Shown: piece by piece, positions 898 through 20,275 of the stretch | Numbering within the stretch: position 1 is the stretch's first letter | Layout of the letters: every line of letters begins with the position of its first letter | Assembly: GCA_963700635.1 (NCBI GenBank) | Contig: CAVOYH010000001.1 | Location: 64,001 to 128,000 of the forward strand | From: an uncultured Bacteroidota bacterium | GTDB taxonomy: Bacteria > Bacteroidota > Ignavibacteria > UBA10030 > UBA6906 | Length of the DNA: 64,000 nt | Reading direction: 5' to 3' | Made by a program: the position numbers and the translations under genes | Notes under the pieces: model-generated | Seen by the model: only the letters and a program-made list of their open reading frames with translations | What the model was told of the DNA's origin: nothing | The model's database searches: none

Positions 898-3636
898 GTG
901 AAAACCATTCTTTCGTTCATCCTGCTCCTGTGTCTGCTGGCGTCCGGCACATTGACCGCCGGCGATACGGGTAAAATCTCCGGTACCATCCGTGACAGGG
1001 AATCCAATGAACCTCTGCCCGGAGCGAATGTTGTCCTGATCGGGACGCCTCTTGGTGCGACCGGGGACGTTAACGGCTTCTATTTCATCAACCGCGTCCC
1101 ACCCGGCACCTATCGGGTTCAGGTAAGCCTCATCGGCTACCAGACGAAGGTGTTCACGGAGGTTCACGTGATGGCTGATGTCACCACCGAGCTGAGTGCT
1201 ACACTCAGCGGAACGGCCGTGGAACTGGGGACGGTGGAAATCACCGCTCACCGCCCGGTGGTGCAGAAAGATCAAACGGCCACACGGACAATCATTGACG
1301 GAGCAACCATCGTCAAAGATCTGCGCTTCCAGGATGTCGGTGAGATCCTCCGCCTGCAGGCGGGTGTCACGCTTGGAAACGATGGAAACCTGCACGTAAG
1401 GGGTGGCCGAACCGGGGGCATGGTATACCAGATCGACGGTATTCCAGTCCAGAACCCGCTCTTCCGCTCAACCGCCGGCGAGATTGAGGTTGAGAATGTC
1501 CAGGAGTTGCAGGCTCATCTGGGTACCTTTGACGCTGAATACGGCAACGCCGCCGATGGCGTGATCACGGTCTATACAAAGGACGGAGGTGATCGTATCA
1601 CCGGCCGGATCGGTTATGAGTCCCCCCGCCTGAACGCCTCACCCTATCAAAAATCTGACTGGAATCTGGACAGGCCGGAGGTTCAGGCATTGCCCGCGGA
1701 CCAGCAGGCACAGTACAAGGACGAGGTGCGAAAACCCGACGGCACATCGGCCTACGAGTATGTGGGCGTGCTGGATGATAAGCATGCGGAAGATCTGCTC
1801 CTGATCAAGGCCCTGGGCACATGGTCGGCCAATCTCTCGGGTCCTGTCCCGGGTCTTTCGGATATAAAATTTTATGCCACCGGACGTCTCCGTCAGGAAA
1901 ACAACAGCCTCCCCTACGGGTATACACTGCTTCGTTCTGCGACTCTGAAGCTGACCTATCCCATCACCACCGAGCTCTTGTTGCGTGGGTCAGTGGACCT
2001 CTCCAAAGCATACCGTCAGACGTACGACCACGCGTATAAATACTGGCGCTGGTGGGATGCCGGAATTGACCCGCTGGGGAGAACCGGAGGATATCCGATC
2101 AACACGGATCAGAGCAACAGGGAGATGTTGTCCATGCGGCACGTCCTCTCCTCAAGCACGTTTTATGATCTTTCCCTTGCGCGTATTTACGACTACACCG
2201 AGCTGGTTGTCCCGGATCGCACCGTGACGTATGATCCGGCAACGGGCAATCTTCTCACCAGCGATTATGTACGGAGACAATGGGTGGGCGGGAACGACTC
2301 GGGATTCCGGTACGGGGACGTCCGGTACTGGACAAACTCAAAGTCGACGCAGTTTCTGTTCAAAGGAAATCTGGAAAGTCAGATTCATCCAAGCCATCAA
2401 CTGCGGACAGGATTTGAGGCAAAGGTCCACGAGATCAGCCGTCACCGGATCGGCATGCCCACGTTGCCCACGCTGGAATTCTTCACCTACCGTCCGCTGG
2501 AAGCTGCTGCGTATTTTCAGGACAAGGTCGAGTACAGTTTTATGATCTTGAAGGCAGGCGTGCGGTTGGATTATTTTGACCCCCGCGCAACGGAATATCC
2601 GGATCCGGCAAAAATTATCGAAGTGATCACCGCACCCGGGGGATCGGCCCAGTATACGTCTATCCCCAAAGTGCCGGTAAAACAACATTTCCAGATCAGC
2701 CCGCGTATCGGAATTGCCCACCCCATCTCAGATAAGACATCCATTCATTTTGCGTACGGACATTTCTTCCAGATTCCCCGTTTCTACGATTTGTACCGGA
2801 ACGACGGGCTGCAGGATGTCCTCGTGAGTGATGCGCTTATCGGAAATCCGGGGTTAAAACCCGAGCGGACCGTTTCATTCGAGGTCGGACTTCAGCAGGA
2901 GCTCTCGCCGGAGTGGGGATTAAACGTCACTGCGTACTCCAAGGACATTACAAACCTGACATCCAGTTACTACTATTTTGTAGGACGGGATTACTCGATC
3001 TTTATCAATTCCGATTTTGCGAGGGTGCAGGGGATCGATATTACGCTTGATAAACGTTTCACGAACTTTTTCTCCGGACGATTGGTCTATTCGCTGATGA
3101 ATGCGATCGGAAACCATTCCGATCCGGCCGGCGGGTACACGTATCGCGAAGAGGAGGCGCACCTCCGTCCAAACCGCAACTACCCGCTGGATTTTGACCA
3201 GAGGCACAAAATTACGGGTACGGTCAGTGTCCGCCTGCCCGAACACTTTGGGCCGGAGCTCCTGGGTGTGTATCCGCTTGAACACCTCGCGGTGGCTTCC
3301 GTGTTCACGGTGGGAAGTGGTTTGCCATACACGCCCACTTCGCGTGCGTCGGAGGAAACGGGAATTGTCCCGGAACCCAATAGTGCCCGCCGCCCCTGGA
3401 CGTACAATCTTGATGTAAAACTTTCGCGCGAGATTCGTTTCTCCGGACTCCGTCTTACGGCCTATTGTGATGTGAGCAATCTTTTTGACCAGGTGAATAC
3501 GGTCTTTATCTGGAGCCGGACCGGCGAGCCGTGGGACGAAGGGTCAACATCGGTGCGCTCCAAAGATCGTCAGGCCAATCCCGAAAACGTCGGAACGCGG
3601 CGTATCGTCCGGGTCGGCGCCATTCTTGAATTTTGA
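898..3636 (+). CDS. TonB-dependent receptor with N-terminal carboxypeptidase-regulatory-like domain
   Basis: Signal peptide; GKISGTIRDRESNEPLPGANV; plug motifs LHVRGGR and FDAEYGNA; LKPERTVSFEVG; C-terminal beta-signal ending in F. Confidence 0.93.
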   Translation: MKTILSFILLLCLLASGTLTAGDTGKISGTIRDRESNEPLPGANVVLIGTPLGATGDVNGFYFINRVPPGTYRVQVSLIGYQTKVFTEVHVMADVTTELSATLSGTAVELGTVEITAHRPVVQKDQTATRTIIDGATIVKDLRFQDVGEILRLQAGVTLGNDGNLHVRGGRTGGMVYQIDGIPVQNPLFRSTAGEIEVENVQELQAHLGTFDAEYGNAADGVITVYTKDGGDRITGRIGYESPRLNASPYQKSDWNLDRPEVQALPADQQAQYKDEVRKPDGTSAYEYVGVLDDKHAEDLLLIKALGTWSANLSGPVPGLSDIKFYATGRLRQENNSLPYGYTLLRSATLKLTYPITTELLLRGSVDLSKAYRQTYDHAYKYWRWWDAGIDPLGRTGGYPINTDQSNREMLSMRHVLSSSTFYDLSLARIYDYTELVVPDRTVTYDPATGNLLTSDYVRRQWVGGNDSGFRYGDVRYWTNSKSTQFLFKGNLESQIHPSHQLRTGFEAKVHEISRHRIGMPTLPTLEFFTYRPLEAAAYFQDKVEYSFMILKAGVRLDYFDPRATEYPDPAKIIEVITAPGGSAQYTSIPKVPVKQHFQISPRIGIAHPISDKTSIHFAYGHFFQIPRFYDLYRNDGLQDVLVSDALIGNPGLKPERTVSFEVGLQQELSPEWGLNVTAYSKDITNLTSSYYYFVGRDYSIFINSDFARVQGIDITLDKRFTNFFSGRLVYSLMNAIGNHSDPAGGYTYREEEAHLRPNRNYPLDFDQRHKITGTVSVRLPEHFGPELLGVYPLEHLAVASVFTVGSGLPYTPTSRASEETGIVPEPNSARRPWTYNLDVKLSREIRFSGLRLTAYCDVSNLFDQVNTVFIWSRTGEPWDEGSTSVRSKDRQANPENVGTRRIVRVGAILEF

Positions 3637-3653
3637 TTCGCCACAGGATACGT

Positions 3654-6524
3654 ATGAAGACACCTCCTTTGATGTTCCGTTCCATTCTGCTGGGTTGCTG
3701 TGCGGTGTGTGTGCTCGCCGGTCAGCTCCGGGCTCAAGATGATGATCCGCCCCGTTCACCCACTGTTGTTCTGCCGAAGCGTGCAAGTTTCGCCGACGAA
3801 GCGATCGGGGTACAGACAAAAGGACAGTTGCAGAATCTGATTATGAACTATGGTCAGATTACCGATACACGATTTGCGGACGTCGGCAATGCCCCAACGG
3901 ACGTGTTCTTCAATATCCGTTACCCCCGTGAAAATTTCACGGGGCTGGTGGATGATTTTGCGCTCTTCTTTGCAATAAAGGAGAACAGCAAAAATGGTGA
4001 CAAGGGGAATGTCATTGACGGATGGACGGACGAAAAAAACGAGGATTGGGTCGCAAAGGATGGTGCCTATGGCAAGACACACTACAATGCGGCGCTTGAC
4101 CCCAACCCGCATGCCGAGTTGAAATACAACGGCCAGACCCCATACCTTGCGCATAGCGACCTCCCGGAAACCTGGCCGGTGGATAACACCGGAGTGGCCT
4201 TCTGGCCCGGAATCTTTCGCCGGGATCCGATCACCGGGATGGAAGTGCCCGGCGAGTTTGTTTCCGACCGCGACATCTATATGGAGTTTGATGACAAACA
4301 TAACCAGCTGGGCGACGTGGTCGGTATCGAAGTGCATGGCATGGCATACAGTTACGGACGTGTGTATGCCGAGAAGATGCTCTTTTATGAATTCTGGGTT
4401 ATTAACAAAAGCGGCAAAACTCTTAACGGCTGTTACTTCGGATCGTATCAGGATCCCGATTGTAGTGACCACACCGAAGAGGCACTCCTCTGGAAAGATT
4501 CCCTGTTTGCAGACGGAACCCGCGTCACATCGGTTGCGCAGCGTGATTTTGACGGGGACATCGGCGGGGCGACACGACCCAACGCGCGCGGCATCACGGA
4601 AGACTATACCTTCGGGACCATCGTATTTGAAACTCCGCGTGCTCTGGGCGTCACAGATTTTCACTACTTTGTAGATCCCGGGCCGGCCGATGATGCCTAT
4701 CTCTGGCCGATTATCTCCAGTGACCCCACAAATCCGCTTATCGCCGGGACCGCCGGCAACTATTTCCACGGTTCCAACCGGCGCATCGATGATGTTTCAC
4801 TCATCACAACCAAGCAGGATCTGGCCTGGATGATGTCAACCGGGCCGTTCTCGATGGCCCCCGGTGACACGGTAAAGTATTCGTTCGCGGTCATCGTTGG
4901 TGATGATGACGCGGACTATTACGCCAACGTATGGGAGGCCAAGAAACTCTACGATGCGTTGTACAACGGTCCGACTGCTCCACCGGCTCCCCGGCTTACG
5001 GCCATTCCCGGCGACGGCCGGGTGACATTGTACTGGGACGATACACCCGAGTCGGCGATCGACCCTTCGACCGGAGAGATGGATTTTGAGGGGTACAAGA
5101 TATACCGGAGCGAAGACGGCGGCATAACGTGGGGCACCAAGATCACCGACGCGCTGGGTCGTACGTACGGGTACGTCCCAGTTGCTCAATTTGATCTCAA
5201 GAACAACATCAAGGGTGCCGATCCCAAGAACTCGCTTGCCTGGCTGGGAACTGACAGTGGTCTCAGACATAGCTGGGTCGATAGTGCGGTCGTCACAGGC
5301 ATCACGTACTCCTATACCATTGTCTCATACGACCGCGGCACGCCAACATTGTATTCGCTGGAGACGACGCGGGGTGACGGGCCGCAGGTCAAAAATTTTG
5401 TCTCGGCCACTCCTCTCCCTCCGGCCAGCGGCAAGATCCCGGCGCGATTAAAAACCATGACGAAGACGCAGGGAACGGGCAAGGGAACAGTGACCGTGGA
5501 AGTGTTGGATGATCGGGCGCTGAAGACGGATCCCTACACGATCGTCATGGAAGGGACGCCGGCCCGCTCCTTCTCGGTTATCCGCCGCGATGGGAATAAC
5601 ACCAGAATCTATACCAGCAAACCGGTGAATTCCTCGGACCTGGCGGTGGCTGACGGATTTCGCGTCAGCGTGAACACGCAGGACCGGATCGGCGGAATCA
5701 CGGGCATCACTGACCAGGACGGAAATATTGTTGTCGGATCATCCAATCTGAGCCGGGATAGCTCCTGGTATGTAACGTATGCAGAAAACGCACAGGCCGA
5801 CACGCTGGCGCGCAGCTTCGATTACGAAATCCGGTTCGCCACCACAACTTCCATTGCCTACAGCTGGGGTGTTGCGGGGTCTGTCGCGAAATACAACGTC
5901 CCCTTTTCTGTCTGGAACACGACAACGAACACTCCCGTGGCATTTGAGATCAGAGATCTGAACAACAACAATCAGTGGGAGGAAGGGGAAGCGGTGTACA
6001 TCACCCGTGTGCCGTATCCGTCTCCCGCGCCGGCGATGGGTGCGGCAAACCCGGCCACCAACATCAAGGAATTCGCCTATCAGATACTGATCACCAACGC
6101 TCCGGCCGATACCGCCCGCCGGTTGCCGGTCGCCGGCACCGTGATCCGGGTCACCAGCTACAATGCACTGACGGACAACGACCGGTATGAATTTAGTTTC
6201 AGCCCCGCATCATTCGATGCCGGCGGCGTTGACCTGAGCGAGATCAGGGTTGTCCCGAATCCGTATATCGTCACATCGAAGTATGAATCCGAACAGAACG
6301 TCCGGCAGATCCGTTTTATGTATCTTCCGCCGGAATGCACGATTACCGTGTACACGGTGGCCGGAACGCGGGTGAAGACACTCACTCAGAGCAGCACCAC
6401 CGGATCCCTGAGTTGGAACCTGGTGACGGATTGGGGACAGGCGCTGGCGTTTGGCGTGTATGTGTATGTCGTAGAAGATCCCAGGGGCAACCGCCATATC
6501 GGAAAATTTGCGTTGATCAAGTGA
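3654..6524 (+). CDS. Large secreted protein with FN3-like domain and T9SS-like C-terminal domain (TBDR-associated cargo)
   Basis: Signal peptide; APPAPRLTAIPGDGRVTLYWD...DFEGYKIYRS (FN3-like); C-terminus IRVVPNPY...IRFMYLP...WNL...GVYVYVV...GKFALIK. ATG at 3654 preferred over TTG at 3633. Confidence 0.8.
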   Translation: MKTPPLMFRSILLGCCAVCVLAGQLRAQDDDPPRSPTVVLPKRASFADEAIGVQTKGQLQNLIMNYGQITDTRFADVGNAPTDVFFNIRYPRENFTGLVDDFALFFAIKENSKNGDKGNVIDGWTDEKNEDWVAKDGAYGKTHYNAALDPNPHAELKYNGQTPYLAHSDLPETWPVDNTGVAFWPGIFRRDPITGMEVPGEFVSDRDIYMEFDDKHNQLGDVVGIEVHGMAYSYGRVYAEKMLFYEFWVINKSGKTLNGCYFGSYQDPDCSDHTEEALLWKDSLFADGTRVTSVAQRDFDGDIGGATRPNARGITEDYTFGTIVFETPRALGVTDFHYFVDPGPADDAYLWPIISSDPTNPLIAGTAGNYFHGSNRRIDDVSLITTKQDLAWMMSTGPFSMAPGDTVKYSFAVIVGDDDADYYANVWEAKKLYDALYNGPTAPPAPRLTAIPGDGRVTLYWDDTPESAIDPSTGEMDFEGYKIYRSEDGGITWGTKITDALGRTYGYVPVAQFDLKNNIKGADPKNSLAWLGTDSGLRHSWVDSAVVTGITYSYTIVSYDRGTPTLYSLETTRGDGPQVKNFVSATPLPPASGKIPARLKTMTKTQGTGKGTVTVEVLDDRALKTDPYTIVMEGTPARSFSVIRRDGNNTRIYTSKPVNSSDLAVADGFRVSVNTQDRIGGITGITDQDGNIVVGSSNLSRDSSWYVTYAENAQADTLARSFDYEIRFATTTSIAYSWGVAGSVAKYNVPFSVWNTTTNTPVAFEIRDLNNNNQWEEGEAVYITRVPYPSPAPAMGAANPATNIKEFAYQILITNAPADTARRLPVAGTVIRVTSYNALTDNDRYEFSFSPASFDAGGVDLSEIRVVPNPYIVTSKYESEQNVRQIRFMYLPPECTITVYTVAGTRVKTLTQSSTTGSLSWNLVTDWGQALAFGVYVYVVEDPRGNRHIGKFALIK

Positions 6525-6527
6525 ACT

Positions 6528-7553
6528 ATGAAAACACTCCTCTGCATACTCGTGTCCGTCGTCTGTTCGGCGGGCAGTGCCTTCGGGCAACAGGATAACA
6601 AAGCCGGCACCACAGCGGCACAATTTCTCAAGATTGGCGTCGGCGCCCGTTCCATTGGCATGGCGGAAGCTGCGGTCGGACTTGTGGAAGACCCCAGCGC
6701 TATGTACTGGAACGTGTCGGGGTTGACCGGAGTCAACTCGGTGGCGGTGACCGCAACCCACACGAACTGGTTTGCCGACCTCACCCATCAGTATTTCGGG
6801 ATCGTGTTGCCGGTGGGAGACGATCACCGATTCGGTTTAAATGCCACGGTTCTGAACCTGGGGGAAATTGAGACCACCACGGAACAACAACCCCGGGGAA
6901 CAGGCACTTTTTTTAAGGCCACTGACGTGGCTATCGGGGTCTCCTATGCGGTGAGACTGGTGGACTTCTTTTCCTTCGGAGCCACCGTCAAGTTTGTCTC
7001 CCAGAGTATTGCGAACGAATCCGGATCAGCAATCGGAGCAGATCTGGGAACCACTCTCCGCACCGGATACAAGGGCATCACAATCGGCATGGCCTTTTCC
7101 AACTTCGGGACAGGCATGAAGCTGGATGGCAGGGATTTGCACAGGACCTATGATCCTCACCCGAACAATTCCGCCAACACCGGCGTATCGAGCTATCTCG
7201 GGACCGAATCCTGGGATCTGCCTGTCATGTTCCGCGTGGGTATCGGGTGGGAGCTTGTTGGTCCGGGAGAAGCACTGATGCAGGATGACATGCATGCTCT
7301 GCGGCTCGGTGTCGATGCGCGACATTCCAACGACGCGCCGGAAAATGCCAGTGTGGGCCTGGAGTATGTCTGGGAGCGCCTCGTCGCTCTGCGCGGCGGA
7401 TACTACTTTAATGATGATGTGCGCACGTGGAGTGCCGGAGCAGGCGTCCGCTGGCAATCCGCGAGTACGTTCGCTGTCGGCGTGGACTATGCGTACGCAA
7501 GTCTGGACCCGCTCGGACCTGTGCATGTGTTTACCCTGACGATGGGATTCTGA
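6528..7553 (+). CDS. PorV/PorQ family outer-membrane beta-barrel protein
   Basis: Hallmark N-terminus KAGTTAAQFLKIGVGARSIGMAEA...SAMYWN; alternating beta-strand pattern; terminal F. Confidence 0.9.
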   Translation: MKTLLCILVSVVCSAGSAFGQQDNKAGTTAAQFLKIGVGARSIGMAEAAVGLVEDPSAMYWNVSGLTGVNSVAVTATHTNWFADLTHQYFGIVLPVGDDHRFGLNATVLNLGEIETTTEQQPRGTGTFFKATDVAIGVSYAVRLVDFFSFGATVKFVSQSIANESGSAIGADLGTTLRTGYKGITIGMAFSNFGTGMKLDGRDLHRTYDPHPNNSANTGVSSYLGTESWDLPVMFRVGIGWELVGPGEALMQDDMHALRLGVDARHSNDAPENASVGLEYVWERLVALRGGYYFNDDVRTWSAGAGVRWQSASTFAVGVDYAYASLDPLGPVHVFTLTMGF

Positions 7554-7555
7554 GT

Positions 7556-8476
7556 ATGAGGGGGAACGTGCCAGGCGGGGCGACACTGTTCGTGTTGGGA
7601 ATCCTCCTTACGCTTTCGGCAACCGGATCCGGAATATCCTCCGAACCCGGGCAGCGAACCTCCCGGTTCGGCACGAACGGATACGTCGAGTATGTTCCGG
7701 GATCCATGCCCCTCATCATCACCATTCCACATGGCGGTACCCTGGAACCCGGCGAACTGCCGGATCGTATTTCGGGGACACTCAGCAGGTACGATACCAA
7801 CACGCTGGAACTTGGGCGCGCAATTGCCGCAGCTCTTTTCAGACAGACGGGACGTTCTCCGTATCTTGTCATCACCCATGTCCACAGAAAGAAGCTCGAC
7901 ACGAATCGCGAGGTCTTTGAAGCGGCGCAGGGTGATTCTCTGGCGAGCCTTGCGTGGGAGGAATTTCACGCGTTCATCCGGGAAGCAAAAGCCGAAGTGG
8001 TCCGTCACTTCGGATCCGGTCTCCTCGCGGATCTGCACGGACACCGTCACACGCGGCCGTGGGTGGAATTGGGATATGTGCTCTCGGCCGCACAGGCGTC
8101 ACTCCCTGATGATTCGCTCAACACACCGGATGTGGTTGCGGCATCGAGTATCGCCTCACTCGCCCGGATGCCGGGTAACTCCATGGCCGGACTGCTCCGC
8201 GGCCCGATGAGTCTTGGCGCGTTACTCGAAGAAGAGGGATATGAAGCTGTACCATCTCCCCGTAATCCTTTTCCCCGCCAAGATCACTATTTTGCGGGTG
8301 GATACAATACTGAACAACACGGGTCCCATGATGCAGGACCAATTGTAGCCATTCAGGTCGAAACACCCTGGCGCACCGTGCGTGATACAGAGATCCACCG
8401 GCAGAAGTTCGCGGACGCAGCATCCATCGCCCTGGTCCGATTTCTGGACATACATTTTGGATCGTATGGCGAATAG
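7556..8476 (+). CDS. Exported N-formylglutamate amidohydrolase-like Zn hydrolase
   Basis: Hydrophobic N-terminus; motifs PLIITIPHGG, HRKKLDTNR, DLHGH, YFAGGY, AIQVE. ATG lies 2 nt after the porV stop. Confidence 0.75.
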   Translation: MRGNVPGGATLFVLGILLTLSATGSGISSEPGQRTSRFGTNGYVEYVPGSMPLIITIPHGGTLEPGELPDRISGTLSRYDTNTLELGRAIAAALFRQTGRSPYLVITHVHRKKLDTNREVFEAAQGDSLASLAWEEFHAFIREAKAEVVRHFGSGLLADLHGHRHTRPWVELGYVLSAAQASLPDDSLNTPDVVAASSIASLARMPGNSMAGLLRGPMSLGALLEEEGYEAVPSPRNPFPRQDHYFAGGYNTEQHGSHDAGPIVAIQVETPWRTVRDTEIHRQKFADAASIALVRFLDIHFGSYGE

Positions 8477-8500
8477 AGTGCCTCCAATACTCTGTGCATT

Positions 8501-9526
8501 ATGAAATCCATCTCTCTGATAACTTTCCTGGCCGGCGTTATGGCGCTCGTCTCCCCTCCCGAATCCCCGGCCCGTGACTCCGTCCGGGTCCGCATCGCCC
8601 GTCTCGCTGAGAAAGACACCCTCACCGTACTGGTGACCGATTCCGGTCTGGGCGGCATTTCGGTGTGCGCTGATATAGAATCCCGCGCGCGACAGACGGG
8701 GATGTACAGTCAATTACGGATTATCTTCGCAAACGCCCTGCCGGAATCAAGTCAGGGCTACAATAAGATGAAGAGTACTGCCGAAAAGGTCCGGGTTTTT
8801 GACGCTGCCCTGCACGGGATGGCACGCTGGTACAAGCCCGATGTGATTCTCGTGGCATGTAACACACTCTCCGTGCTGATACCACAGACGACGTTTGTCG
8901 ATACCACATCGGTTCCGGTGCTCGGCATTGTGGAAACGGGGGTGGAGATGTTGTTCGAGCGGTTATCCGCTGACCCCAACTCATCAGCTGTCATTTTTGC
9001 CACGGAAACGACGATCGGCGCCGGCACGCATAGGAAGCTCCTTATTGAAAAAGGCATTGACTCCATGCGGCTGGTCCCTCAGGCATGCCCGGATCTTGCC
9101 GGTGAAATTGAGATGGACGCGGGGAGCGATCTGGTGTCCTCCTCCATCGGCGCGTTTGTCGGGGATGCTACTTTGCGTCTACGCACCGGAACAGCCAACG
9201 TGCTGGCAGGACTTTGCTGCACACATTATGGCTATGTGGCAAAAACATTTGAAGGGGCGCTGCGGGAGTGTGGAATCGAGGGCGTCGAAATTGTGGACCC
9301 GAATTCCCGCATGGGGGATATTCTCTTTCCGCCAGGAAAGCTCCGGCGCAGCGAAAAACCGGACATTCATGTCGCGGTTGTATCCCGTGCGATTATCGTG
9401 CCCGCAGAGATTTCATCGATCAGCACGCTGGTCGAATCGTTGTCGCCCGCGACCGCTGCGGCATTACGAACATATACAGTACAACGGGATCTGTTTATGT
9501 ACGGCACGACCGGCAGGCCGGAGTAG
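8501..9526 (+). CDS. Aspartate/glutamate racemase family protein (MurI-like) with N-terminal signal peptide
   Basis: DSGLGG, ACNT and CCTHY retain both catalytic Cys; ATETT; N-terminus MKSISLITFLAGVMALVS is signal-like. Confidence 0.85.
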   Translation: MKSISLITFLAGVMALVSPPESPARDSVRVRIARLAEKDTLTVLVTDSGLGGISVCADIESRARQTGMYSQLRIIFANALPESSQGYNKMKSTAEKVRVFDAALHGMARWYKPDVILVACNTLSVLIPQTTFVDTTSVPVLGIVETGVEMLFERLSADPNSSAVIFATETTIGAGTHRKLLIEKGIDSMRLVPQACPDLAGEIEMDAGSDLVSSSIGAFVGDATLRLRTGTANVLAGLCCTHYGYVAKTFEGALRECGIEGVEIVDPNSRMGDILFPPGKLRRSEKPDIHVAVVSRAIIVPAEISSISTLVESLSPATAAALRTYTVQRDLFMYGTTGRPE

Positions 9527-9583
9527 CAGAGATCACATCGGGTGGGTCAAACCGGGAACGTGCCCGGAACAACAGGGGACAAT

Positions 9584-9853
9584 ATGGCTGAAGAAAAAAA
9601 GAAAAAGATCGCAGGCTCGGTGGTGATCTCCGTCGAACGGTGCAAGGGATGCGGGTTTTGCGTGGAATTCTGCCCACCGCGCGCACTCAAACTCTCCGAA
9701 CAATACAACGTCAAAGGCTATCATCCACCGGCCCTGATCTCGAAGGAGATGTGCAACGGATGTAACATGTGCGGTTTACTCTGCCCGGATTTTGCCATCT
9801 ACGGGTTCCTTCTGAACAAGAAGGTCGGAAAGGGAGGACACCGTGAAGGCTGA
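9584..9853 (+). CDS. korD: 2-oxoacid:ferredoxin oxidoreductase delta subunit (2x[4Fe-4S] ferredoxin)
   Basis: Two CxxCxxCxxxCP motifs (CKGCGFCVEFCP, CNGCNMCGLLCP); overlaps the alpha subunit gene. Confidence 0.88.
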   Translation: MAEEKKKKIAGSVVISVERCKGCGFCVEFCPPRALKLSEQYNVKGYHPPALISKEMCNGCNMCGLLCPDFAIYGFLLNKKVGKGGHREG

Positions 9854-11006
9854 CCCGATCGGTGTCCTGACCGGTGCGCATTTTATTGATGGCGATCATG
9901 CGTGTTGTGAGGGGGCCATTGCTGCGGGTTGCCGGTTCGTCGCAGGTTATCCCATCACACCCTCTACCGAAGTTGTGGAACGTATCGCCGAACGATTCCC
10001 GCTCGTGGGGGGCGTCTTTATTCAGATGGAAGACGAAATCGCTTCCTCGATCGCCATCCAGGGCGCGGTATGGGCCGGAAAGAAAGCGATGACGGTTTCA
10101 TCCGGACCCGGTTTTTCTCTCATGATGGAGCATATCGGCTTTGCTGCCATGACCGAGACGCCCTGCGTGTTTGTCGACGTTCAACGGGCCGGTCCTTCAA
10201 CCGGACTGCCCACCCAGCCGGCGCAGGGCGACATGATGCAGGCGCGCTGGGGATCACATGGAGACTATCGGGGGATTGCACTCTGCCCGAATTCGCCGCA
10301 GGAGTGTTTTGACCTCACCATCAAAGCCTTTAACCTCGCCGAGCAGTACCGCGTACCGGTCTTCTTTATGATGGATGAATGTGTCGGGCACATGACGGAA
10401 CGGGTCGTAATCCCTCCGGCCGACCAGATCGATCTGGTCCCGCGCCGGTGGTTCACCGGGAGTACGGAATCCTATGAACCGTTTCGCGCGGGGGAGGATC
10501 TGGTGCCCGCGATGGTGAAAGCCGGCGATGGGTACAATATTCATGTCACGGGGCTGACCCATGACGAACGGGGATATCCCAACATGTCGGTGCTGACTCA
10601 CGAAAAACTTCTCAACCGGTTGCATGATAAGATCGTCAATCAAAGCGAAACGATTGCCGACTATGTCGAGGATCAGGTGGATGGAGCGGATATCGTTGTG
10701 GTCACCTACGGAATCACTTCACGCACAGCCCTGCCCGCCATTGAGAGGGCGCGACGGGACGGACTCAACGTTGGTCATCTCCGCCTTATTGTGGTCTGGC
10801 CCTTTCCCGAACACCGTATACGTGAACTCGCATCGCACGTAGGGGCATTTGTTGTGCCGGAGCTCAATCTGGGCCAGATGGTTCTGGAAGTCGAGCGGTG
10901 TGCGGCGGGCAAGGTCCCCGTGACCCTGGTAGGGCATACCGGTGGCACGGTACATCAACCCGATGAGATATATCATGCAATTCTGAAGAGCAAAAAAGGA
11001 CGTTGA
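9843..11006 (+). CDS. korA: 2-oxoacid (probably 2-oxoglutarate):ferredoxin oxidoreductase alpha subunit
   Basis: AGYPITPS, QMEDEIAS, SGPGFSLM, QRAGPSTGLPT, QARWGSHGD; SD ggagga before the GTG start. Confidence 0.9.
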   Translation: MKADPIGVLTGAHFIDGDHACCEGAIAAGCRFVAGYPITPSTEVVERIAERFPLVGGVFIQMEDEIASSIAIQGAVWAGKKAMTVSSGPGFSLMMEHIGFAAMTETPCVFVDVQRAGPSTGLPTQPAQGDMMQARWGSHGDYRGIALCPNSPQECFDLTIKAFNLAEQYRVPVFFMMDECVGHMTERVVIPPADQIDLVPRRWFTGSTESYEPFRAGEDLVPAMVKAGDGYNIHVTGLTHDERGYPNMSVLTHEKLLNRLHDKIVNQSETIADYVEDQVDGADIVVVTYGITSRTALPAIERARRDGLNVGHLRLIVVWPFPEHRIRELASHVGAFVVPELNLGQMVLEVERCAAGKVPVTLVGHTGGTVHQPDEIYHAILKSKKGR

Positions 11007-11009
11007 CCC

Positions 11010-11894
11010 ATGGCTGAAGAGCTGTATGACCTCCACACGAGTGTGCCCGTCAATCCGGTCGAGTCGATCCTGCGTATGGACCGGATGCCGCATATCTGGT
11101 GCCCCGGCTGTGGGATCGGAACGACAGTAAATTGTTTCGCTCAGGCGGTGGAATCAAGCGGGCTTGACCTGCGTAAGACAGCGATCGTGTCCGGCATCGG
11201 ATGCACCGGCCGTGTTGCAGGATATCTGAATCTTGACTCGTTTCATACCACGCACGGTCGGGCCATTCCCTTTGCGACCGGTCTCAAACTTGCCAATCCG
11301 GAACTCAAAGTGGTGGTGTACAGCGGTGACGGAGATCTCAGTGCGATCGGCGGCAACCATTTTATCCACGCGGCACGGCGTAATGTAGATCTGACGGTGA
11401 TCCTCATCAACAACTCAACCTACGGGATGACCGGCGGACAGGTGGCGCCCACAACCCCGATGAGTGCCATCGCGTCCACGACACCATACGGGAACTTTGA
11501 ATCGGCTTTTAACCTCCCGGCGCTTGCAGAGTCCTGCGGCGCAGTGTATGTCGCGCGCTGGACGGCGTTCCATGTGCGTCACACCATCAAGGCGATCAGG
11601 GAAGCGCTTCTGAAGAAGGGGTTTTCGTTTGTCGAGATCCTTGCCCCCTGCCCGACTCTGTATAGTAGAAGGAACAAGCTGGGGGATGGACTTGCCCAGA
11701 TGCTCTACTACCAGGAGAAGAGCGAAATCCGTCATTCGGCCGATACCAAAGACGTTGCTCTGGACTTCCAGGGGAAGATCATCGTGGGAAAATTTGTTGA
11801 CAGGGTGAGGCCGACCTTTGATGAGGCGATGACGGAATACTACCGCCAACATCTTGGATCCCAATACGTCCCCGCGACAGCGGGAGGAGTGTAA
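11010..11894 (+). CDS. korB: 2-oxoacid:ferredoxin oxidoreductase beta subunit (TPP-binding)
   Basis: WCPGCG, SGIGC, HGRAIPFATG, GDGD...GGNH, NNSTYGMTGGQ, PCPT. Confidence 0.92.
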   Translation: MAEELYDLHTSVPVNPVESILRMDRMPHIWCPGCGIGTTVNCFAQAVESSGLDLRKTAIVSGIGCTGRVAGYLNLDSFHTTHGRAIPFATGLKLANPELKVVVYSGDGDLSAIGGNHFIHAARRNVDLTVILINNSTYGMTGGQVAPTTPMSAIASTTPYGNFESAFNLPALAESCGAVYVARWTAFHVRHTIKAIREALLKKGFSFVEILAPCPTLYSRRNKLGDGLAQMLYYQEKSEIRHSADTKDVALDFQGKIIVGKFVDRVRPTFDEAMTEYYRQHLGSQYVPATAGGV

Positions 11895-11896
11895 CC

Positions 11897-12433
11897 GTGG
11901 CTCGCACGGAAATCAAAATCGGGGGGTTCGGCGGTCAGGGAGTGATTCTCAGTGGATATATCCTCGGGCGTGCAGCCTCCATATACGACAATAAATACGC
12001 GACCATGATCCAGGCGTTCGGCCCTGAAGCCCGTGGAAGCGCCTGCAGCGCGCAGGTGATCGTGGCGGAGGAGCCTATCGCGTATCCGTATATCACGAGT
12101 CCGGGCCTCATGGTCCTGATGTCGCAGGAGGCCTACACACGATTCTGTCCGGAACTTGCGCCCGGGGGGCTGCTGATTACCGAGGAAGAACTCGTCAGCG
12201 TCCGCAATCTCCGATCCGACATCCGGCACCTGTCCATCCCTGCAACAAGAATAGCGGAAGAGCTGGGGAAGAAAATGGTGCTGAATATTGTGATGATGGG
12301 ATTTTTCGGAGCGGTTTCGGGTGTGACAAGCAAAGAAGCGCTTTGCAAAGCGGTCGAAGTCTCTGTGCCCAAAGGCACCGGCGAATTGAACCTGAAGGCG
12401 TTTGAAATGGGCTGGGGATTTGAGCGTAAGTAG
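11897..12433 (+). CDS. korC: 2-oxoacid:ferredoxin oxidoreductase gamma subunit
   Basis: GFGGQGVI, FGPEARGSAC, NIVMMG, NLKAFEMG. Confidence 0.9.
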   Translation: MARTEIKIGGFGGQGVILSGYILGRAASIYDNKYATMIQAFGPEARGSACSAQVIVAEEPIAYPYITSPGLMVLMSQEAYTRFCPELAPGGLLITEEELVSVRNLRSDIRHLSIPATRIAEELGKKMVLNIVMMGFFGAVSGVTSKEALCKAVEVSVPKGTGELNLKAFEMGWGFERK

Positions 12434-12520
12434 TTCCCACCGTCCCGGCGCCGATGATACAGAGCAGTTCTGTGGAGAACAGCGTGAAGGCATACTCATG
12501 AAACATCTGCGGATGGTGTA

Positions 12521-13792
12521 GTGCCGTCGGAACTCATCATACTTCTGACCATGCTCGCGGTGTTTGCCGCCGGTGTGTTCTGGTGGAAAATCCCTGCGGG
12601 GCTTTCGCTCGCCCTTTCTTCCATCGCAGGTGCGCTGGTGGGAGGATACGGTGTACCGGTGCGCCATCTTGTGGAAGGCACGTTTGGCTATCTTGACGCC
12701 GTGCTGATCATCGCCACCGCGATGATTTTTATGAAGGCGATCGAAGCCAGCGGGGCGCTCGGAACCATCAGCTATGCCATGATCCGATCGCTCTACCGCT
12801 GGCCCACGCTGCTGATGATCCTTGTGGTGCTCTTTATTATGTTTCCGGGCATGCTTACGGGTCTCTCCTCTGCATGCATACTGACAACAGGCGCTCTGGT
12901 GACACCCGCACTGTTGGCCATGGGGATGCCCCCGGTTGCGGTTGGTTCCCTCGTGGCAATGGCCGCCGTGTACGGCATGACAGCGCCCCCGATAAACATT
13001 CCCGTCATGATCATCGGGGGAGGGGTGGATATGCCGTATATCGGTTTTGAGATTCCGCTTCTTCTCGCGACCATGCCCCTTGCCCTGGTAACTGCTGTGT
13101 ATTTTCGGGTTCGGTACGTTCGCACCATTGACCCCGTTGCGGTTCTGGCAAAACTCCCGGCGTCGGTGTACGGGCGTCATGGGATGAAGCTGTTTCTCCC
13201 GCTGGTTGTGGTGGTGGGACTGATGATCGCCGTGCGGGTGGTGCCGGCCTGGATGCCGGATATAGGGGTGCCGCTGATCTTTCTCCTCGGCGCGCTGGCG
13301 GCGTGGGGGACGGGGGAGAAGATCAACCTTCTCAAGGTTTCCCGGATCGCTTTCCGGGAAGCACTCCCCATTATGACCATCCTCGTCGGCGTGGGGATGT
13401 TTGTCCAGATAATGACCCTGACCGGCGTACGGGGCTTTATTGCTGTCAGTGCGCTGCAATTGCCTGCCGCTCTCCTGTATCTCGGGATTGCAGCGATTAT
13501 GCCGGCTTTTGGCTCCGCCTACGCGGCATCTTCGGTGCTCGGCGTGCCCCTGGTGTACGTTTTCCTCGGACGGAACGAGATCATGGTATCGTCAGCACTT
13601 TCCCTTATCGCGGGATTGGGGGACCTGATGCCGCCCCCCTCGTTGCTGTGCGTCTTTGCCGCACAATTAGTCGGGGAGAAGAATCACTTCCGTATTCTCA
13701 AGGAAAGCCTCCCCCTTATCGTGCTCTCGCTTGTCGTGGGGATAACAATGATCATCTATGCGGCCCAGCTCGGGTCACTTTTCCGCTACTAA
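12521..13792 (+). CDS. TRAP-type (DctM-like, ion transporter superfamily) large permease subunit
   Basis: About 12 hydrophobic segments; GMTAPPINIP and GDLMPP motifs; context with AstE-like and DUF6305 genes. Confidence 0.75.
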   Translation: MPSELIILLTMLAVFAAGVFWWKIPAGLSLALSSIAGALVGGYGVPVRHLVEGTFGYLDAVLIIATAMIFMKAIEASGALGTISYAMIRSLYRWPTLLMILVVLFIMFPGMLTGLSSACILTTGALVTPALLAMGMPPVAVGSLVAMAAVYGMTAPPINIPVMIIGGGVDMPYIGFEIPLLLATMPLALVTAVYFRVRYVRTIDPVAVLAKLPASVYGRHGMKLFLPLVVVVGLMIAVRVVPAWMPDIGVPLIFLLGALAAWGTGEKINLLKVSRIAFREALPIMTILVGVGMFVQIMTLTGVRGFIAVSALQLPAALLYLGIAAIMPAFGSAYAASSVLGVPLVYVFLGRNEIMVSSALSLIAGLGDLMPPPSLLCVFAAQLVGEKNHFRILKESLPLIVLSLVVGITMIIYAAQLGSLFRY

Positions 13793-13806
13793 GAACAGGA
13801 GTGTGT

Positions 13807-13953
13807 GTGCTGCACTGGGTCTACATCGGTCTGGCTCTTTATTGCGCGGGTGTGCTGGTTGTCGAGTTGTTCAGCGAGAAACGCTGGCGGGAACAACTTG
13901 CGTTAGCGCTTATTCTTATTCCGTTTGTCCTACGAATCCTGCATATCAAGTGA
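13807..13953 (+). CDS. Small two-helix membrane protein (48 aa)
   Basis: SD aggag then GTG at 13807; MLHWVYIGLALYCAGVLVVELFSEKRWREQLALALILIPFVLRILHIK; fills the gap exactly, and its stop overlaps the next GTG (GTGA). Confidence 0.7.
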   Translation: MLHWVYIGLALYCAGVLVVELFSEKRWREQLALALILIPFVLRILHIK

Positions 13954-15083
13954 CGCGGCCCATTACATCGTTTCACCACGTGAGGGCTCTGGCCCTGCTG
14001 ATCCTGGCCGGAGTGGTCTGCGTCGTGGCGGGTTCGGAATTTATGGCCATGTGGTCCCCCGACACGCTGTATCCTTCACGCGCACTCAGCAGAGTGGACT
14101 CACTGAGCACATACTGTCCGTCCCTACGGGGCACGCGGGCAGAAACGCGTGTGTATGTGTTCGAGAGTGATCTCCCCGGGCCGACGTTCCTGGTGCTTGG
14201 CGGCACGCATCCCAATGAACCTGCCGGATTTATTGCGGCCACAGTACTGCTGGAGAACCTCGTGCTTCAAGCCGGACGATGTATCATCATTCCACAGGCA
14301 TGTGAAAGCGGATTCACATGCACGGATCCGCTGGAAGGCTCGCCCCAGACGTTTTCCCTGGTCACGGCAAGCGGCAGGCGCACGTTCAGGTTCGGGGGAA
14401 GGGCCGCAAATGTAGTGGATCAATGGCCGGATCCCCTTGTCTACCTTCATTATCCGTCAGGACAGCAACTCTCCGGCAATGAAACCAGAAATCTGAACCG
14501 GGCGTATCCCGGCCGGCCGGACGGCTCGCTCACCGAGCGGACGGCGTATGCGATTGTAACCCTGATCGAGCGGGAGCATGTGGATTTTGCCGTGGACCTC
14601 CATGAGGCCGCACCGGAGATCCCGATCATCAACGCGATCATTACGCACGAAAAGGGACGGGATCTGGCGGCCAGCGCGGTGCTGAATCTGGAGTTCGAAG
14701 ACCTTCAGTATGCGCTTGAGCTCTCTCCGGAAAATTTTCGGGGCTTGAGTCATCGCGAATGGGGAGACGGGACCCCGGTCATTCCATTTCTTATGGAGAC
14801 GAGCAATCCGATTCAGGGACGACTGCGCGGCCGCACCTCGGAGCAGCTCATTGTGAACGGGGTTGACCCGTGGTACAAGATCGCCGAACAATTGGGAACC
14901 ATGCGGATCACCTACGATCCGGCAGGCGAACCGCTGGCGCGGAGGGTCGGACGCCATCTGCAGGGACTCCGCGCGCTGATCGACGCGTACAATACCGAAC
15001 ATCCCGAGACACCGCTTCTGCTCGGAGAATTACCCGGTTACACACAACTCATGGAACACGGAGTGGAACGGTACCTCCGGTAA
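13950..15083 (+). CDS. Succinylglutamate desuccinylase/aspartoacylase (M14-like Zn hydrolase), membrane-anchored or exported
   Basis: GGTHPNE (HxxE), RNLNRAYPG, VDLHEA; N-terminal hydrophobic helix. Confidence 0.85.
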   Translation: MTRPITSFHHVRALALLILAGVVCVVAGSEFMAMWSPDTLYPSRALSRVDSLSTYCPSLRGTRAETRVYVFESDLPGPTFLVLGGTHPNEPAGFIAATVLLENLVLQAGRCIIIPQACESGFTCTDPLEGSPQTFSLVTASGRRTFRFGGRAANVVDQWPDPLVYLHYPSGQQLSGNETRNLNRAYPGRPDGSLTERTAYAIVTLIEREHVDFAVDLHEAAPEIPIINAIITHEKGRDLAASAVLNLEFEDLQYALELSPENFRGLSHREWGDGTPVIPFLMETSNPIQGRLRGRTSEQLIVNGVDPWYKIAEQLGTMRITYDPAGEPLARRVGRHLQGLRALIDAYNTEHPETPLLLGELPGYTQLMEHGVERYLR

Positions 15084-15130
15084 TGACACTATTGACCAAT
15101 CACGCACACACGATACAGTATATGGAGATC

Positions 15131-15688
15131 ATGATGAACCGACTGACCTTTTTCCGGCTTGTTCTTTTCCTGGTGGTGGCTGCAACAGTACAGGGTGTCT
15201 CACAGGACAAACCGGCCTTCAAGGCACCCATCCTCATTACTTCCGCCGGCCAGAGCGCCGATGTAAGTCTTGCCGGCAATCTCTGTAAGAGAGCGGGACT
15301 GGAAGCCAGGGTGGTGCCAACGGCCTCCGCAGCGGACCTAAAAGGGTTCAAGACAGTTATGATTGTTGCCGGATTCAGTTCCAAGGGACTCGGGGCAGCC
15401 GGCACAAGCCGCGAGCAGGAGCTGGACCGGGTGAAGAACCTGGTCATCGCAGCACAAAAAGCCGGGCTGCCGATCTTGACGCTGCATATCGGCGGCAAAG
15501 CGCGACGGGGGAGCCAGTCGGACGACTTTAACAAGCTCGCGGCAGATGCCGCCCTGCATCTCATCGTGGTCACCCAGGGTGACGAAGATGGCTTCTTTAC
15601 AAAGATAGCACGAGAGCGTAAAGTGAAGCTGGAATTGGTCGATAAGATTGTCGGAGTAGTGGCTCCCCTTTCTGCGGCATTCAAATAG
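15131..15688 (+). CDS. DUF6305 family exported protein
   Basis: Signal peptide; PILITSAGQSAD, GFSSKGLGAAG, HIGGKARRG, GDEDGFF resemble DUF6305; SD ggag before the ATG. Confidence 0.72.
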   Translation: MMNRLTFFRLVLFLVVAATVQGVSQDKPAFKAPILITSAGQSADVSLAGNLCKRAGLEARVVPTASAADLKGFKTVMIVAGFSSKGLGAAGTSREQELDRVKNLVIAAQKAGLPILTLHIGGKARRGSQSDDFNKLAADAALHLIVVTQGDEDGFFTKIARERKVKLELVDKIVGVVAPLSAAFK

Positions 15689-15726
15689 AGTCAGGCAGGA
15701 GTGGTTTTTTTAACGGAGAAAGACGT

Positions 15727-17550
15727 ATGCGGAGAGAGCGTATGATGAACGGGAGACCGATCTTTTGGTGCCTATTGACATTTCTCTGTCTGTCGCTGAC
15801 CGTGTCGTCGCAGACTGTACCCGGCGGCGCACATACCGTTGTCGCAACCGGAACAAAAGGGATGGCCGCCACGGCCCACCCCCTGGCTTCTGAAGCTGCA
15901 ATCATCATGCTGCAGCGCGGAGGAAATGCGGTTGATGCTGCGGTTGCGGCGACTTTTGCAATCGGTGTTGTCGAGCCGGATGGTTCTGGACTCGGTGGAG
16001 GGGGAGGAGCGCTGATCTACCTCGCAAAGGAAAAGAAGGCCGTCTATATAAACTTCTACCCGTGTGCCTCATCGGACGTGACCAGTCTGTCGCCGTATTC
16101 CCGCAGTGATGCTCAGACCGGAAAGGCCATCCTTGTTCCAGGGACTGTTGCAGGGCTTACGCTCGCACTCGAACGATACGGGACCCTGCCGCTCGCAACG
16201 GTTCTCGGGCCGGCTATCCGGCTTGCACGGGACGGCTTTCCGATTGACGAGACGCTGGGGAGGATTATCCTGGACAACGTCCCGCTGGTGCAACGGGATT
16301 CCGCCACCGCAGCGATCTACCTGCGCGATGGGTTTCCGTTGATGGAAGGTGATACGCTCCGCCAGCCCGAGCTCGCGAAAACCCTCACCGCCATCGCCAT
16401 AGAAGGGCGTGCAGGCTTCTATGAGGGTCCCATTGCACGGACGATCGTGAATGATGTACGCCGTGCGGGAGGAGCGATGACCCTGGAGGATCTCCGTCGT
16501 ACAACAGCACAGGTGCTGGAGCCCCTGCATGGCACCTACCGCGGCTACAGTGTCCTCACCACCCCGCCTCCGCAGTCCGGTCCGCTTGTGCTGGAAGCGT
16601 TAAACATTCTGGAGAACGAGCAGCTTGCTGCGCTCGGGCGCTTCGACTCCTCCGGTCAAGCAATGCACCTTATTGCTGAAACCTTCCGGCGCGTGTATGC
16701 CGATCGTACGTCATTTCTTGCCGATCCACGTTTTGAGCACGTGCCGGTCCGTGGTCTGATCGACAAAGCGTATGCGCGCAGCCGTATGGATGATATCAAC
16801 CGGTTCAAGGCAGATCCCCCGGAGTACAGAAAGACACGTTCAGGGAATCCGGCTGCGTATCAGACCGGAGAGCCGAACCGGGACACGTCTCGAGTGTCCA
16901 GGCCCGCCGGAGTCGGGAAAAGTCAGGAGAGCAGGGACGACGATAACGGATCATCCTCCGGGATGAAGCATGGTATCGACGCCGGAACAGAAAGGGATGG
17001 ACATACGACACATCTGGGCGTTATGGACAGAGAGGGGAATGTTGTTTCGCTTACCCAGACACTGGGAACGTTTTTCGGATCGGGGGTGACGACAGCCGGC
17101 GTGCTCATGAACAATGCTATGTCCAATTTTGCCACCACCGTGTCGCGCAATGCGATGGAGCCAGGCAAACAACCACGAAGCTCCATAGCGCCAACCATTC
17201 TTCTAAAAAATGGTGAACCCTTCATGTCTGTTGGTTCACCCGGCGCAACCCGCATCATTGCAACGGTTGTTCAGCTTATCGTGAACATTGTGGACTACGG
17301 GATGACGGCAGAGGATGCAAATGCCGCCCCCAGATTCTTCTGCCAGAAAGCGGATGATTACCTGCATTGTGAGGGACGGATTAGCGAGCAGGTACAGGAA
17401 GACCTCAAGAAAAGAGGGCACGCGCTCCGTGTGTACGGCGATTATGATCTTTTTTTTGGCGGAGCCCAGATTATTCTCCGCGATCCCTCAACCGGACTGC
17501 TCTCGGGTTCTGCTGATCCCCGGCGGGGTGGAGTCGCTTTAGGATACTGA
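15727..17550 (+). CDS. ggt: Gamma-glutamyltransferase (GGT/CapD-like), exported
   Basis: GGNAVDAAVA, EPDGSGLGGGG, VPGTVAG, autocleavage HTTH (Thr at 17005), PRSSIAP, GSPG, DPRRGG; signal peptide. Confidence 0.93.
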   Translation: MRRERMMNGRPIFWCLLTFLCLSLTVSSQTVPGGAHTVVATGTKGMAATAHPLASEAAIIMLQRGGNAVDAAVAATFAIGVVEPDGSGLGGGGGALIYLAKEKKAVYINFYPCASSDVTSLSPYSRSDAQTGKAILVPGTVAGLTLALERYGTLPLATVLGPAIRLARDGFPIDETLGRIILDNVPLVQRDSATAAIYLRDGFPLMEGDTLRQPELAKTLTAIAIEGRAGFYEGPIARTIVNDVRRAGGAMTLEDLRRTTAQVLEPLHGTYRGYSVLTTPPPQSGPLVLEALNILENEQLAALGRFDSSGQAMHLIAETFRRVYADRTSFLADPRFEHVPVRGLIDKAYARSRMDDINRFKADPPEYRKTRSGNPAAYQTGEPNRDTSRVSRPAGVGKSQESRDDDNGSSSGMKHGIDAGTERDGHTTHLGVMDREGNVVSLTQTLGTFFGSGVTTAGVLMNNAMSNFATTVSRNAMEPGKQPRSSIAPTILLKNGEPFMSVGSPGATRIIATVVQLIVNIVDYGMTAEDANAAPRFFCQKADDYLHCEGRISEQVQEDLKKRGHALRVYGDYDLFFGGAQIILRDPSTGLLSGSADPRRGGVALGY

Positions 17551-17559
17551 GATTTTTTT

Positions 17560-20197: not shown

Positions 20198-20275
20198 CCG
20201 AATCCGATCCTTGCTTTTCGTGACGTGCGCACGTATATTCTTGCGCTCCGGGCGAGCTCAAATCAGCCGGGACTC

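Follow-up and report, generated by a model that had tools for sequence, protein, structure and literature searches.

A predicted exported two-cysteine racemase of the MurI fold tied to gamma-glutamyltransferase and PGA genes in uncultured bacteria

In a stretch of 64,000 nucleotides from an uncultured Bacteroidota bacterium of the Ignavibacteria (hereafter the window), we found a gene for a racemase that keeps the two-cysteine machinery of the glutamate racemase MurI behind a predicted export signal. We take it for a genuine, very probably exported form of two-cysteine racemase, uncharacterised so far and linked to genes for gamma-glutamyltransferase (GGT) and for poly-gamma-glutamate (PGA). 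The open reading frame runs from ATG to TAG and encodes 341 residues (P0001), and stops interrupt the reverse frame of the same interval. The gene and its parts are:

8501–9526, + strand: predicted exported MurI-fold two-cysteine racemase (AlphaFold pLDDT 93.3; glutamate racemases at the top of Foldseek and VIA comparisons)
8501–8572, + strand: predicted Sec signal peptide, residues 1–24 (from sequence; cleavage after S-P-A presumed from homologues)
8639–8656, + strand: DSGLGG motif, residues 47–52 (D47 in 119/120 proteins, S48 in 118/120; both invariant in 89/89 rows)
8732–8770, + strand: subfamily-specific loop NALPESSQGYNKM, residues 78–90, in place of GDTARVPYG (G86 and Y87 in 120/120 proteins, N88 in 119/120)
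8855–8866, + strand: ACNT, residues 119–122, with the predicted catalytic Cys120 (120/120 proteins)
9215–9229, + strand: CCTHY, residues 239–243, with the predicted catalytic Cys240 (C240, T241 and H242 in 120/120 proteins; C239 variable)

The protein reached 44.5 bits on TIGR00067 (MurI) against an equivalog cut-off of 146.65 and 19.6 on TIGR00035 (aspartate racemase) against 93.1. Its sole Pfam match, PF01177, gave 28.8 bits (E 1.3e-6) with a gathering threshold of 31, and a precomputed PF01177 match is present in most of the listed homologues; the same Pfam search returned neither the alanine racemase family nor PF09587 (PGA_cap). All 11 sequence matches in the PDB were glutamate racemases, identity to MurI being about 20%. 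Foldseek placed MurI best for the model (E 5e-12), and VIA superposed it on three MurI chains with Z 22.2–23.5 and rmsd 3.1–3.2 over 249–255 aligned residues, compared with Z values of at most 17.1 for aspartate racemases; the top 11 VIA rows all fall within the Asp/Glu/hydantoin racemase superfamily (PF01177). The model has the two-domain racemase fold with facing cysteine motifs, and the ESM Atlas gave automatic racemase names only.

An earlier note on this DNA had described the two cysteine motifs and DSGLGG behind a signal-like segment and an exchange of the MurI PYG loop for NALPESSQGYNKM. ACNT, CCTHY and DSGLGG were all found in place, the last preceded by a 46-residue N-terminal extension, and the loop exchange was evident in a profile alignment to PDB MurI, where the loop begins with N78 and has a 3-residue insertion before Y87-N88, with Y87 aligned to the tyrosine and N88 to the glycine of PYG (PYG to GYN). 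Among 120 close proteins G86, Y87, C120, N121, T122, T168, T170, T171, H177, C196, C240, T241 and H242 are invariant; in 89 more diverse rows D47, S48, Y87, C120–S124 and T171 are invariant, N88 is present in 88, and T168, C240, T241 and H242 are nearly so. After MurI structures, we take D47, S48, N121, T122 and T241 as likely ligands of the alpha-amino and alpha-carboxyl groups, with the backbone of Y87-N88 contacting the side-chain carboxylate; in MurI, the counterparts of Y87 and S48 contact this carboxylate. As predicted from the alignment, the residues binding the alpha-amino acid are all retained and the change is confined to the side-chain loop; an invariant Gly-to-Asn exchange together with an insertion at the MurI site for the glutamate side chain means that the substrate may differ. 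In Bacillus subtilis MurI, C74 and C185 act as base and acid of a two-cysteine mechanism, as described in PMC5038272, and by analogy Cys120 and Cys240 would play these parts here.

The N-terminus has a Lys at position 2, an uncharged hydrophobic run from 4 to 17 and a polar, Pro-rich run up to S-P-A. Relatives were judged by a rule that takes an in-frame start 25–80 codons ahead of the motif Asp and then an uncharged hydrophobic run, applied to 86 loci (6 of 92 candidates escaped the motif pattern). A leader was called in 71 of the 86 subfamily loci, 51 of Sec type and 20 of lipobox type, with 15 left without a call, compared with a single one of 21 canonical MurI proteins from subfamily-carrying genomes. 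Lipobox-cysteine leaders, 20 by this first rule, rose to 29 candidates under a looser recount, and the occurrence of both Sec and lipoprotein signals on one conserved core argues against chance. The export proposed in the earlier note is supported by these counts, and its caution that homologues might lack signal peptides applies to 15 of the 86 loci and fails for the other 71. In two of the 15 (L011 and L065) traces of a leader are visible and the gene seems frameshifted. Judged by predicted leaders, export is the majority state of the subfamily and not a universal one, and the window racemase itself is very probably exported, by way of a signal peptide whose cleavage we infer. A structural C196–C239 disulfide was considered as a mark of export and rejected, C239 being present in 12 of 19 leaderless rows and in only 2 of 20 lipoprotein rows. 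Frameshift or read-through of the racemase gene was seen at L011, L035, L065 and L120 (leader lost, frame split or fusion to a ligase), probably through assembly errors.

The earlier note had also raised a true start downstream of the hydrophobic segment. If translation began at Met14, the product would be a cytoplasmic second glutamate racemase that feeds or recycles D-Glu for PGA. The DNA itself is compatible with this start: no Shine-Dalgarno-like stretch accompanies either ATG, a Met occupies the Met14 column in 51 of 120 close homologues, and leaderless members exist. However, 51 of the 69 leader-bearing loci lack a Met in this zone, lipobox leaders occur in many lineages and the MurI controls are without such leaders, so we consider a Met14 start very improbable.

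The window racemase is also not its genome's only enzyme of this kind, which the earlier note had named as a point to check. A PF01177 profile search of the window's genome gave two matches, the window racemase and a gene on contig C3 that is murI, with the canonical PYG loop and 255.9 bits on TIGR00067. Of 60 carrier genomes, 43 have a MurI match (44 of 61 with the non-carrier G153), as do 13 of 13 high-quality genomes, and the carriers without one belong to lineages often MurI-less anyway. A function as stand-in for an absent murI was rejected on the 43 of 60 carriers with MurI and on one phylum in which 41 of 61 genomes are MurI-less and only 3 of 61 are carriers. In this phylum (G320 and G351–G410) canonical murI went unmatched in the 41 genomes, and in G320 the predicted exported racemase is the only PF01177 match.

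Homologues are numerous: 1625 matching proteins were obtained among 8000 candidates scored, and a profile search gave 394 clusters (50% identity) at E up to 1e-30. Within a collection of species genomes 441 stretches encode relatives, the best 80 of which were fetched (77 genomes by title). Record titles place the subfamily in Ignavibacteria/Bacteroidota, KSB1, Calditrichota, Zixibacteria, Marinimicrobia, Acidobacteriota, Aminicenantes, Verrucomicrobia, Deltaproteobacteria and others. Some of these labels seem doubtful, such as that of L057, given as Eubacteriales and nested inside the Aminicenantes group. By its sequence, the window racemase is a member of a conserved, uncharacterised subfamily distinct from MurI. 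In a quick tree, whose root is unsure and in which two leaderless rows look like frameshift artefacts, leader-bearing and leaderless states are intermixed; a single origin of the leaderless state was rejected, this tree requiring 7 changes, at least 5 of them forced by starred branches. The earlier note had not foreseen leaderless members in other contexts. In L080 (6641–12030), L081 (821–5341), L113, L114, L119 and L120, the neighbours of such members include a CapA domain and an ATP-grasp enzyme resembling D-Ala-D-Ala ligase; L080 also has an alanine racemase, a class IV aminotransferase and an alanine dehydrogenase nearby.

In the window, the racemase gene is one of 20 successive genes on the same strand with gaps of at most 87 bp. 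The order begins with a T9SS-tailed protein, a TonB-dependent receptor, a large T9SS-type protein, a PorV-family barrel, an N-formylglutamate-amidohydrolase-like (FGase-like) hydrolase and the racemase, continues with four 2-oxoacid:ferredoxin oxidoreductase genes, a DctM-like permease, an AstE-like hydrolase, a DUF6305 protein and GGT, and ends with pgsB, pgsC, the TIGR04332 gene and three more. The neighbours are as follows, counts referring to the best 80 of the 441 loci:

898–7553, + strand: TonB-dependent receptor, large T9SS-type protein and PorV/PorQ-family barrel (receptor in 11/80 loci, the other two in 10/80)
7556–8476, + strand: N-formylglutamate-amidohydrolase-like hydrolase that has a hydrophobic leader and is separated from the racemase by 24 bp (PF05013 E 2.8e-6, just below the cut-off)
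9584–12433, + strand: 2-oxoacid:ferredoxin oxidoreductase (ferredoxin, alpha, beta, gamma), directly downstream of the racemase
12521–15688, + strand: DctM-like permease, AstE/AspA-like zinc hydrolase and DUF6305 protein (21, 24 and 21 of 80 loci)
15727–17550, + strand: GGT with a leader and without the E. coli lid-loop insertion (TIGR00066 444 bits, above the cut-off)
17560–20197, + strand: pgsB, pgsC and TIGR04332 gene, a PGA synthase cluster (TIGR04012, TIGR04011 and TIGR04332 above their cut-offs)

Hydrophobic N-terminal segments are present on both zinc hydrolases, the DUF6305 protein, GGT and the TIGR04332 protein. In alignments, the GGT of the window matches the lid-less Bacillus enzyme gap-free and shows a gap against E. 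coli GGT. Both zinc-hydrolase families act on N-acyl-glutamates, of which gamma-Glu-Glu is one; joined with the carboxypeptidase-A-like nature of the phage PGA hydrolase PghP described in PMC4497714, this makes the two hydrolases plausible PGA-cutting enzymes. The receptor, a 963-residue protein without a Pfam match and the PorV-family barrel form a recurrent trio in 10 of the best 80 of 441 loci, and the 963-residue protein could be a surface protein that binds or cuts PGA. Genes of the oxidoreductase lie near the racemase in 4 of these 80 loci, and its alpha subunit has two more paralogues elsewhere in the window's genome. The TIGR04332 protein (PgsW, 19121–20197) has a confident predicted fold (pLDDT 84.1) between two membrane-like helices; when its model was examined for a hidden epimerase, Foldseek matched nothing at E 0.001 and the best VIA Z was 8.0, from which nothing follows. 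At 20225–21025 lies a 266-residue protein, unmatched in Pfam and NCBIfam, that is seen in 5 of the best 80 of 441 loci, mostly with an EamA gene, and that directly follows the racemase in L009, where the pgs genes are gone. A promoter scan of 6400–13000 gave 3 sites against 3.1 expected.

The same partners recur around relatives. Among the best 80 of 441 loci, counted with 10 kb flanks where the contig permitted, GGT is present in 33, AstE-like genes in 24, DctM-like genes and DUF6305 in 21 each and FGase-like genes in 16; pgsB was seen in 15, pgsW in 13, pgsC in 12 and pgsBCW counted in 16. Within 700 bp of the racemase, the genes found in these best 80 of 441 are GGT (18), DctM (10), FGase (6), pgsB (4) and pgsW (2). 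GGT without pgs occurs in 19 of them, both in 14, pgs only in 2 and neither in 45. In several genomes pgsBCW lies elsewhere with GGT still beside the racemase. Among 61 unselected genomes of another phylum, two new carriers (G381 and G406) have a racemase match starting at most 45 bp after the GGT match, with pgsW on a different contig. The DctM-like, AstE-like, DUF6305, GGT and pgsB-pgsC-TIGR04332 genes (12521–20197 in the window) amount to a capA-less PGA cluster found in many phyla, also without an adjoining racemase. Further neighbours were an unannotated pair of about 425 residues (no Pfam match) and about 611 residues (lipoprotein-like), upstream of the DctM-like gene or beside the racemase in L085 (5426–8549), L087 (15718–18884), L126, L128 and L129, and an aromatic amino-acid lyase family gene near the racemase in five loci (L074 12867–14597, L052, L058, L063 and L065).

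Across genomes, pgsB accompanies the leader-bearing form. A sample of 301 genomes from the window's phylum contains 13 with the subfamily and 8 with pgsB; of the 288 without the subfamily, 4 have pgsB, and 8 of the 9 carriers without pgsB are leaderless. Two types of pgsB were seen in this sample, a lower-scoring one (242–254 bits; 5 genomes, DUF6305 in 5/5 and racemase in 4/5) and a higher-scoring one (401–447 bits; 3 genomes, racemase and DUF6305 in none). In L096, L097, L098 and L121 the genes downstream of the higher-scoring type differ from those of the lower-scoring one. Among 50 sampled locus genomes of the 77, pgsB is present in 33, and in 0 of the 5 truly leaderless ones. When pooled and deduplicated, 36 of 48 leader-bearing genomes have pgsB compared with 0 of 13 in which only a leaderless copy was found (L011, L065 and L074 counted as leader-bearing by eye), for which the Fisher p of 8e-7 is overstated because kin genomes are not independent. 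The link of the racemase to PGA genes suggested in the earlier note is supported by this comparison. An exported copy and a leaderless paralogue occur together in four pgsB genomes. In 12 of the 48 leader-bearing genomes pgsB went unmatched, the 100% complete G053 among them. G153 is complete and has the lower-scoring pgsB, and no racemase was matched in it, its locus stopping at a contig end.

To this evidence we fit, at about an even chance, a periplasmic racemase that turns D-Glu from PGA or other gamma-glutamyl compounds into L-Glu. Gamma-glutamyl oligomers would enter via the TonB-dependent receptor and be cut by the zinc hydrolases and the lid-less GGT; the secreted GGT of B. subtilis trims single units off the PGA N-terminus according to PMC4497714. 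The racemase would then equilibrate the freed D- and L-Glu in the periplasm, net D-to-L flow being pulled by uptake of L-Glu via the DctM-like permease, and in the window's clade 2-oxoglutarate would be oxidised by the adjacent 2-oxoacid oxidoreductase. Beyond the presence of the genes we infer these steps, glutamate as the substrate included. Conversion of D-Glu from PGA to L-Glu appears the best-supported direction, drawn from gene context only, and since racemases are reversible, gene context alone cannot fix it. Several points weigh against salvage. Some leader-bearing genomes lack a pgsB match, G153 lacks the racemase, and the side-chain loop is changed; the active-site cysteines would have to be kept reduced in the periplasm; and the cytoplasmic MurI could convert D-Glu after import, which leaves the benefit of export unexplained. 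The earlier note had proposed a periplasmic cofactor-independent racemase for D-Glu released from PGA; the predicted export, the two-cysteine chemistry and the PGA link are supported, with the direction left to gene context.

A racemase of other or broader range, acting on Asp, Gln or peptidoglycan D-residues, or one that supplies D-Glu to the cell's surroundings, much as the PLP-dependent BsrV does with other D-amino acids, would suit the low identity to MurI and the altered side-chain loop. The reversibility of the reaction leaves room for it, and leaderless members sit beside alanine racemase, class IV aminotransferase, CapA and a Ddl-like ligase, a setting in which their products would be D-amino acids. 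Against it, the fold is closer to MurI than to aspartate racemases, the TIGR00035 score is far under its cut-off and the recurrent neighbours of exported copies are glutamyl-related, which makes such a range distinctly unlikely.

The earlier note's other proposal, an epimerase acting on Glu residues within oligomers, is weakened, the residues that meet the free alpha groups in MurI all being invariant; such holders fit free Glu or at most an N-terminal gamma-glutamyl residue. An exported epimerase for that N-terminal residue, in PGA oligomers or other gamma-glutamyl amides, would find both a free alpha-amino and a free alpha-carboxyl group on it, and flipping it would let a stereoselective GGT digest mixed D/L chains. 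The only invariant active-site changes lie in the side-chain loop (N78, the 3-residue insertion and N88 for Gly), and GGT, the tightest gene partner, acts on exactly this residue. Yet Y87 and S48, presumed contacts of the side-chain carboxylate, are retained, and we know of no precedent for a MurI-fold peptide epimerase. Such a step would moreover be needless if, as reported in PMC8909396, Bacillus GGT releases D- or L-glutamate residues. On balance we think an N-terminal epimerase unlikely.

The absence of capA bears on where D-Glu would come from. No capA/pgsA gene is present in the window cluster, the CapA matches of the window's genome being on other contigs. CapA domains occur somewhere in 35 of 40 pgsB genomes. 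None of the 37 genomes with the lower-scoring pgsB has a CapA match at a distance of 20 kb or less from it, compared with 2 of 3 for the higher-scoring type; many contigs are short, and the extra high-scoring copies of G340 lie on contigs without CapA. In G097 and G145 the CapA domain near the higher-scoring pgsB is part of a protein of about 1000 residues. PgsA has reportedly been demonstrated directly as an epimerase in a later study. CapA has been proposed as the polymer epimerase in PMC8179263, PGA systems without CapA are recognised in PMC5542703, and B. subtilis PgsBC without PgsA made an L-rich polymer (D/L 5/95 compared with 75/25) in the account of PMC6029982. Because of this last result, a capA-less synthase may yield little D-Glu, and with an L-rich polymer of the cell's own, D-Glu would have to derive from foreign PGA or peptidoglycan. 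Either the synthase takes D-Glu directly, or foreign PGA or peptidoglycan supplies it, or the racemase edits the polymer.

In the last case, the racemase would be a non-homologous stand-in for CapA/PgsA that places D-Glu in the PGA of capA-less PgsBCW. The CapA proximity counts, the lack of a racemase in the three genomes of the higher-scoring type, the tracking of pgsB by leader presence and the epimerase role proposed for CapA (PMC8179263) all agree with this. The acylated alpha-amino group of internal residues, however, should not fit the intact amino pocket of MurI, the racemase gene stays with GGT when separated from pgsBCW, and pgsBCW without either CapA or racemase exists (G089 and G153); CapA is also present elsewhere in most pgsB genomes, many contigs are short and the higher-scoring type comprises only three genomes. 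A CapA stand-in is therefore very unlikely in our estimate. A retained alpha-amino pocket speaks against internal residues and permits the N-terminal one, which leaves peptide readings together a minor but appreciable share of our expectation: an extracytoplasmic isopeptide epimerase with the MurI fold and two cysteines, one that adjusts the D/L composition of PGA in capA-less PgsBCW systems of many phyla, ahead of GGT or in place of CapA, is doubtful.

Among the papers listed in a literature search of openly accessible texts, none described an exported or periplasmic Asp/Glu-family (glutamate) racemase and none was relevant to DUF6305, TIGR04332 or pgsW. To our knowledge, the known periplasmic amino-acid racemases use PLP and two-cysteine Asp/Glu racemases are treated as cytoplasmic. 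The subfamily would place cofactor-free racemase chemistry outside the cytoplasm in many uncultured phyla, tied to a cluster for making and recycling PGA. Through it, the handling of D-glutamate by capA-less PGA systems and the scavenging of D-glutamate from the environment could be tested directly, and a soluble secreted glutamate racemase or gamma-glutamyl epimerase, if this is what it encodes, would be useful for tuning or degrading PGA.

Among known systems, MurI/RacE (TIGR00067; PDB 5w16, 3uhf, 2jfn, 1b73 and 1zuw) share with the window racemase the fold, DSGxGG, ACNT, CTH, the two cysteines, both Thr of a T-x-x-T motif and a Glu near position 204. The window racemase differs in its sub-threshold TIGR00067 score, its Sec or lipoprotein leader, GYN with the insertion, a coexisting true murI and the PGA/GGT context; by score, loop and predicted leader it is outside MurI. 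RacX, YgeA and CuyB (TIGR00035) are likewise cofactor-free members of the superfamily and are set apart by the TIGR00035 score and the lower VIA Z values; the available text of PMC12838360 describes no leader for them, and that of PMC5169069 reports no signal peptide for the transferred eukaryotic racemases examined.

MurI/RacE enzymes are cytoplasmic, and the Bsr enzymes depend on PLP and fold like alanine racemase. BsrV-type racemases are bacterial amino-acid racemases found in the periplasm (PMC3037491), where the leader rule would also place the window racemase, which differs from them in its cofactor-free two-cysteine MurI fold, without an alanine racemase Pfam match. The CapA/PgsA and MslH peptide epimerases (PF09587) are similarly tied to PGA D-Glu, CapA being missing at racemase loci, and belong to an unrelated family; MslH acts on peptides, whereas the racemase keeps free-amino-acid contacts. 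In the reuse of PGA by B. subtilis, a glutamate racemase handles D-Glu and a lid-less secreted GGT trims the PGA N-terminus, much as proposed for the window cluster; Bacillus RacE is cytoplasmic and unlinked, whereas the window has a dedicated, predicted exported paralogue clustered with GGT, two zinc hydrolases and a permease.
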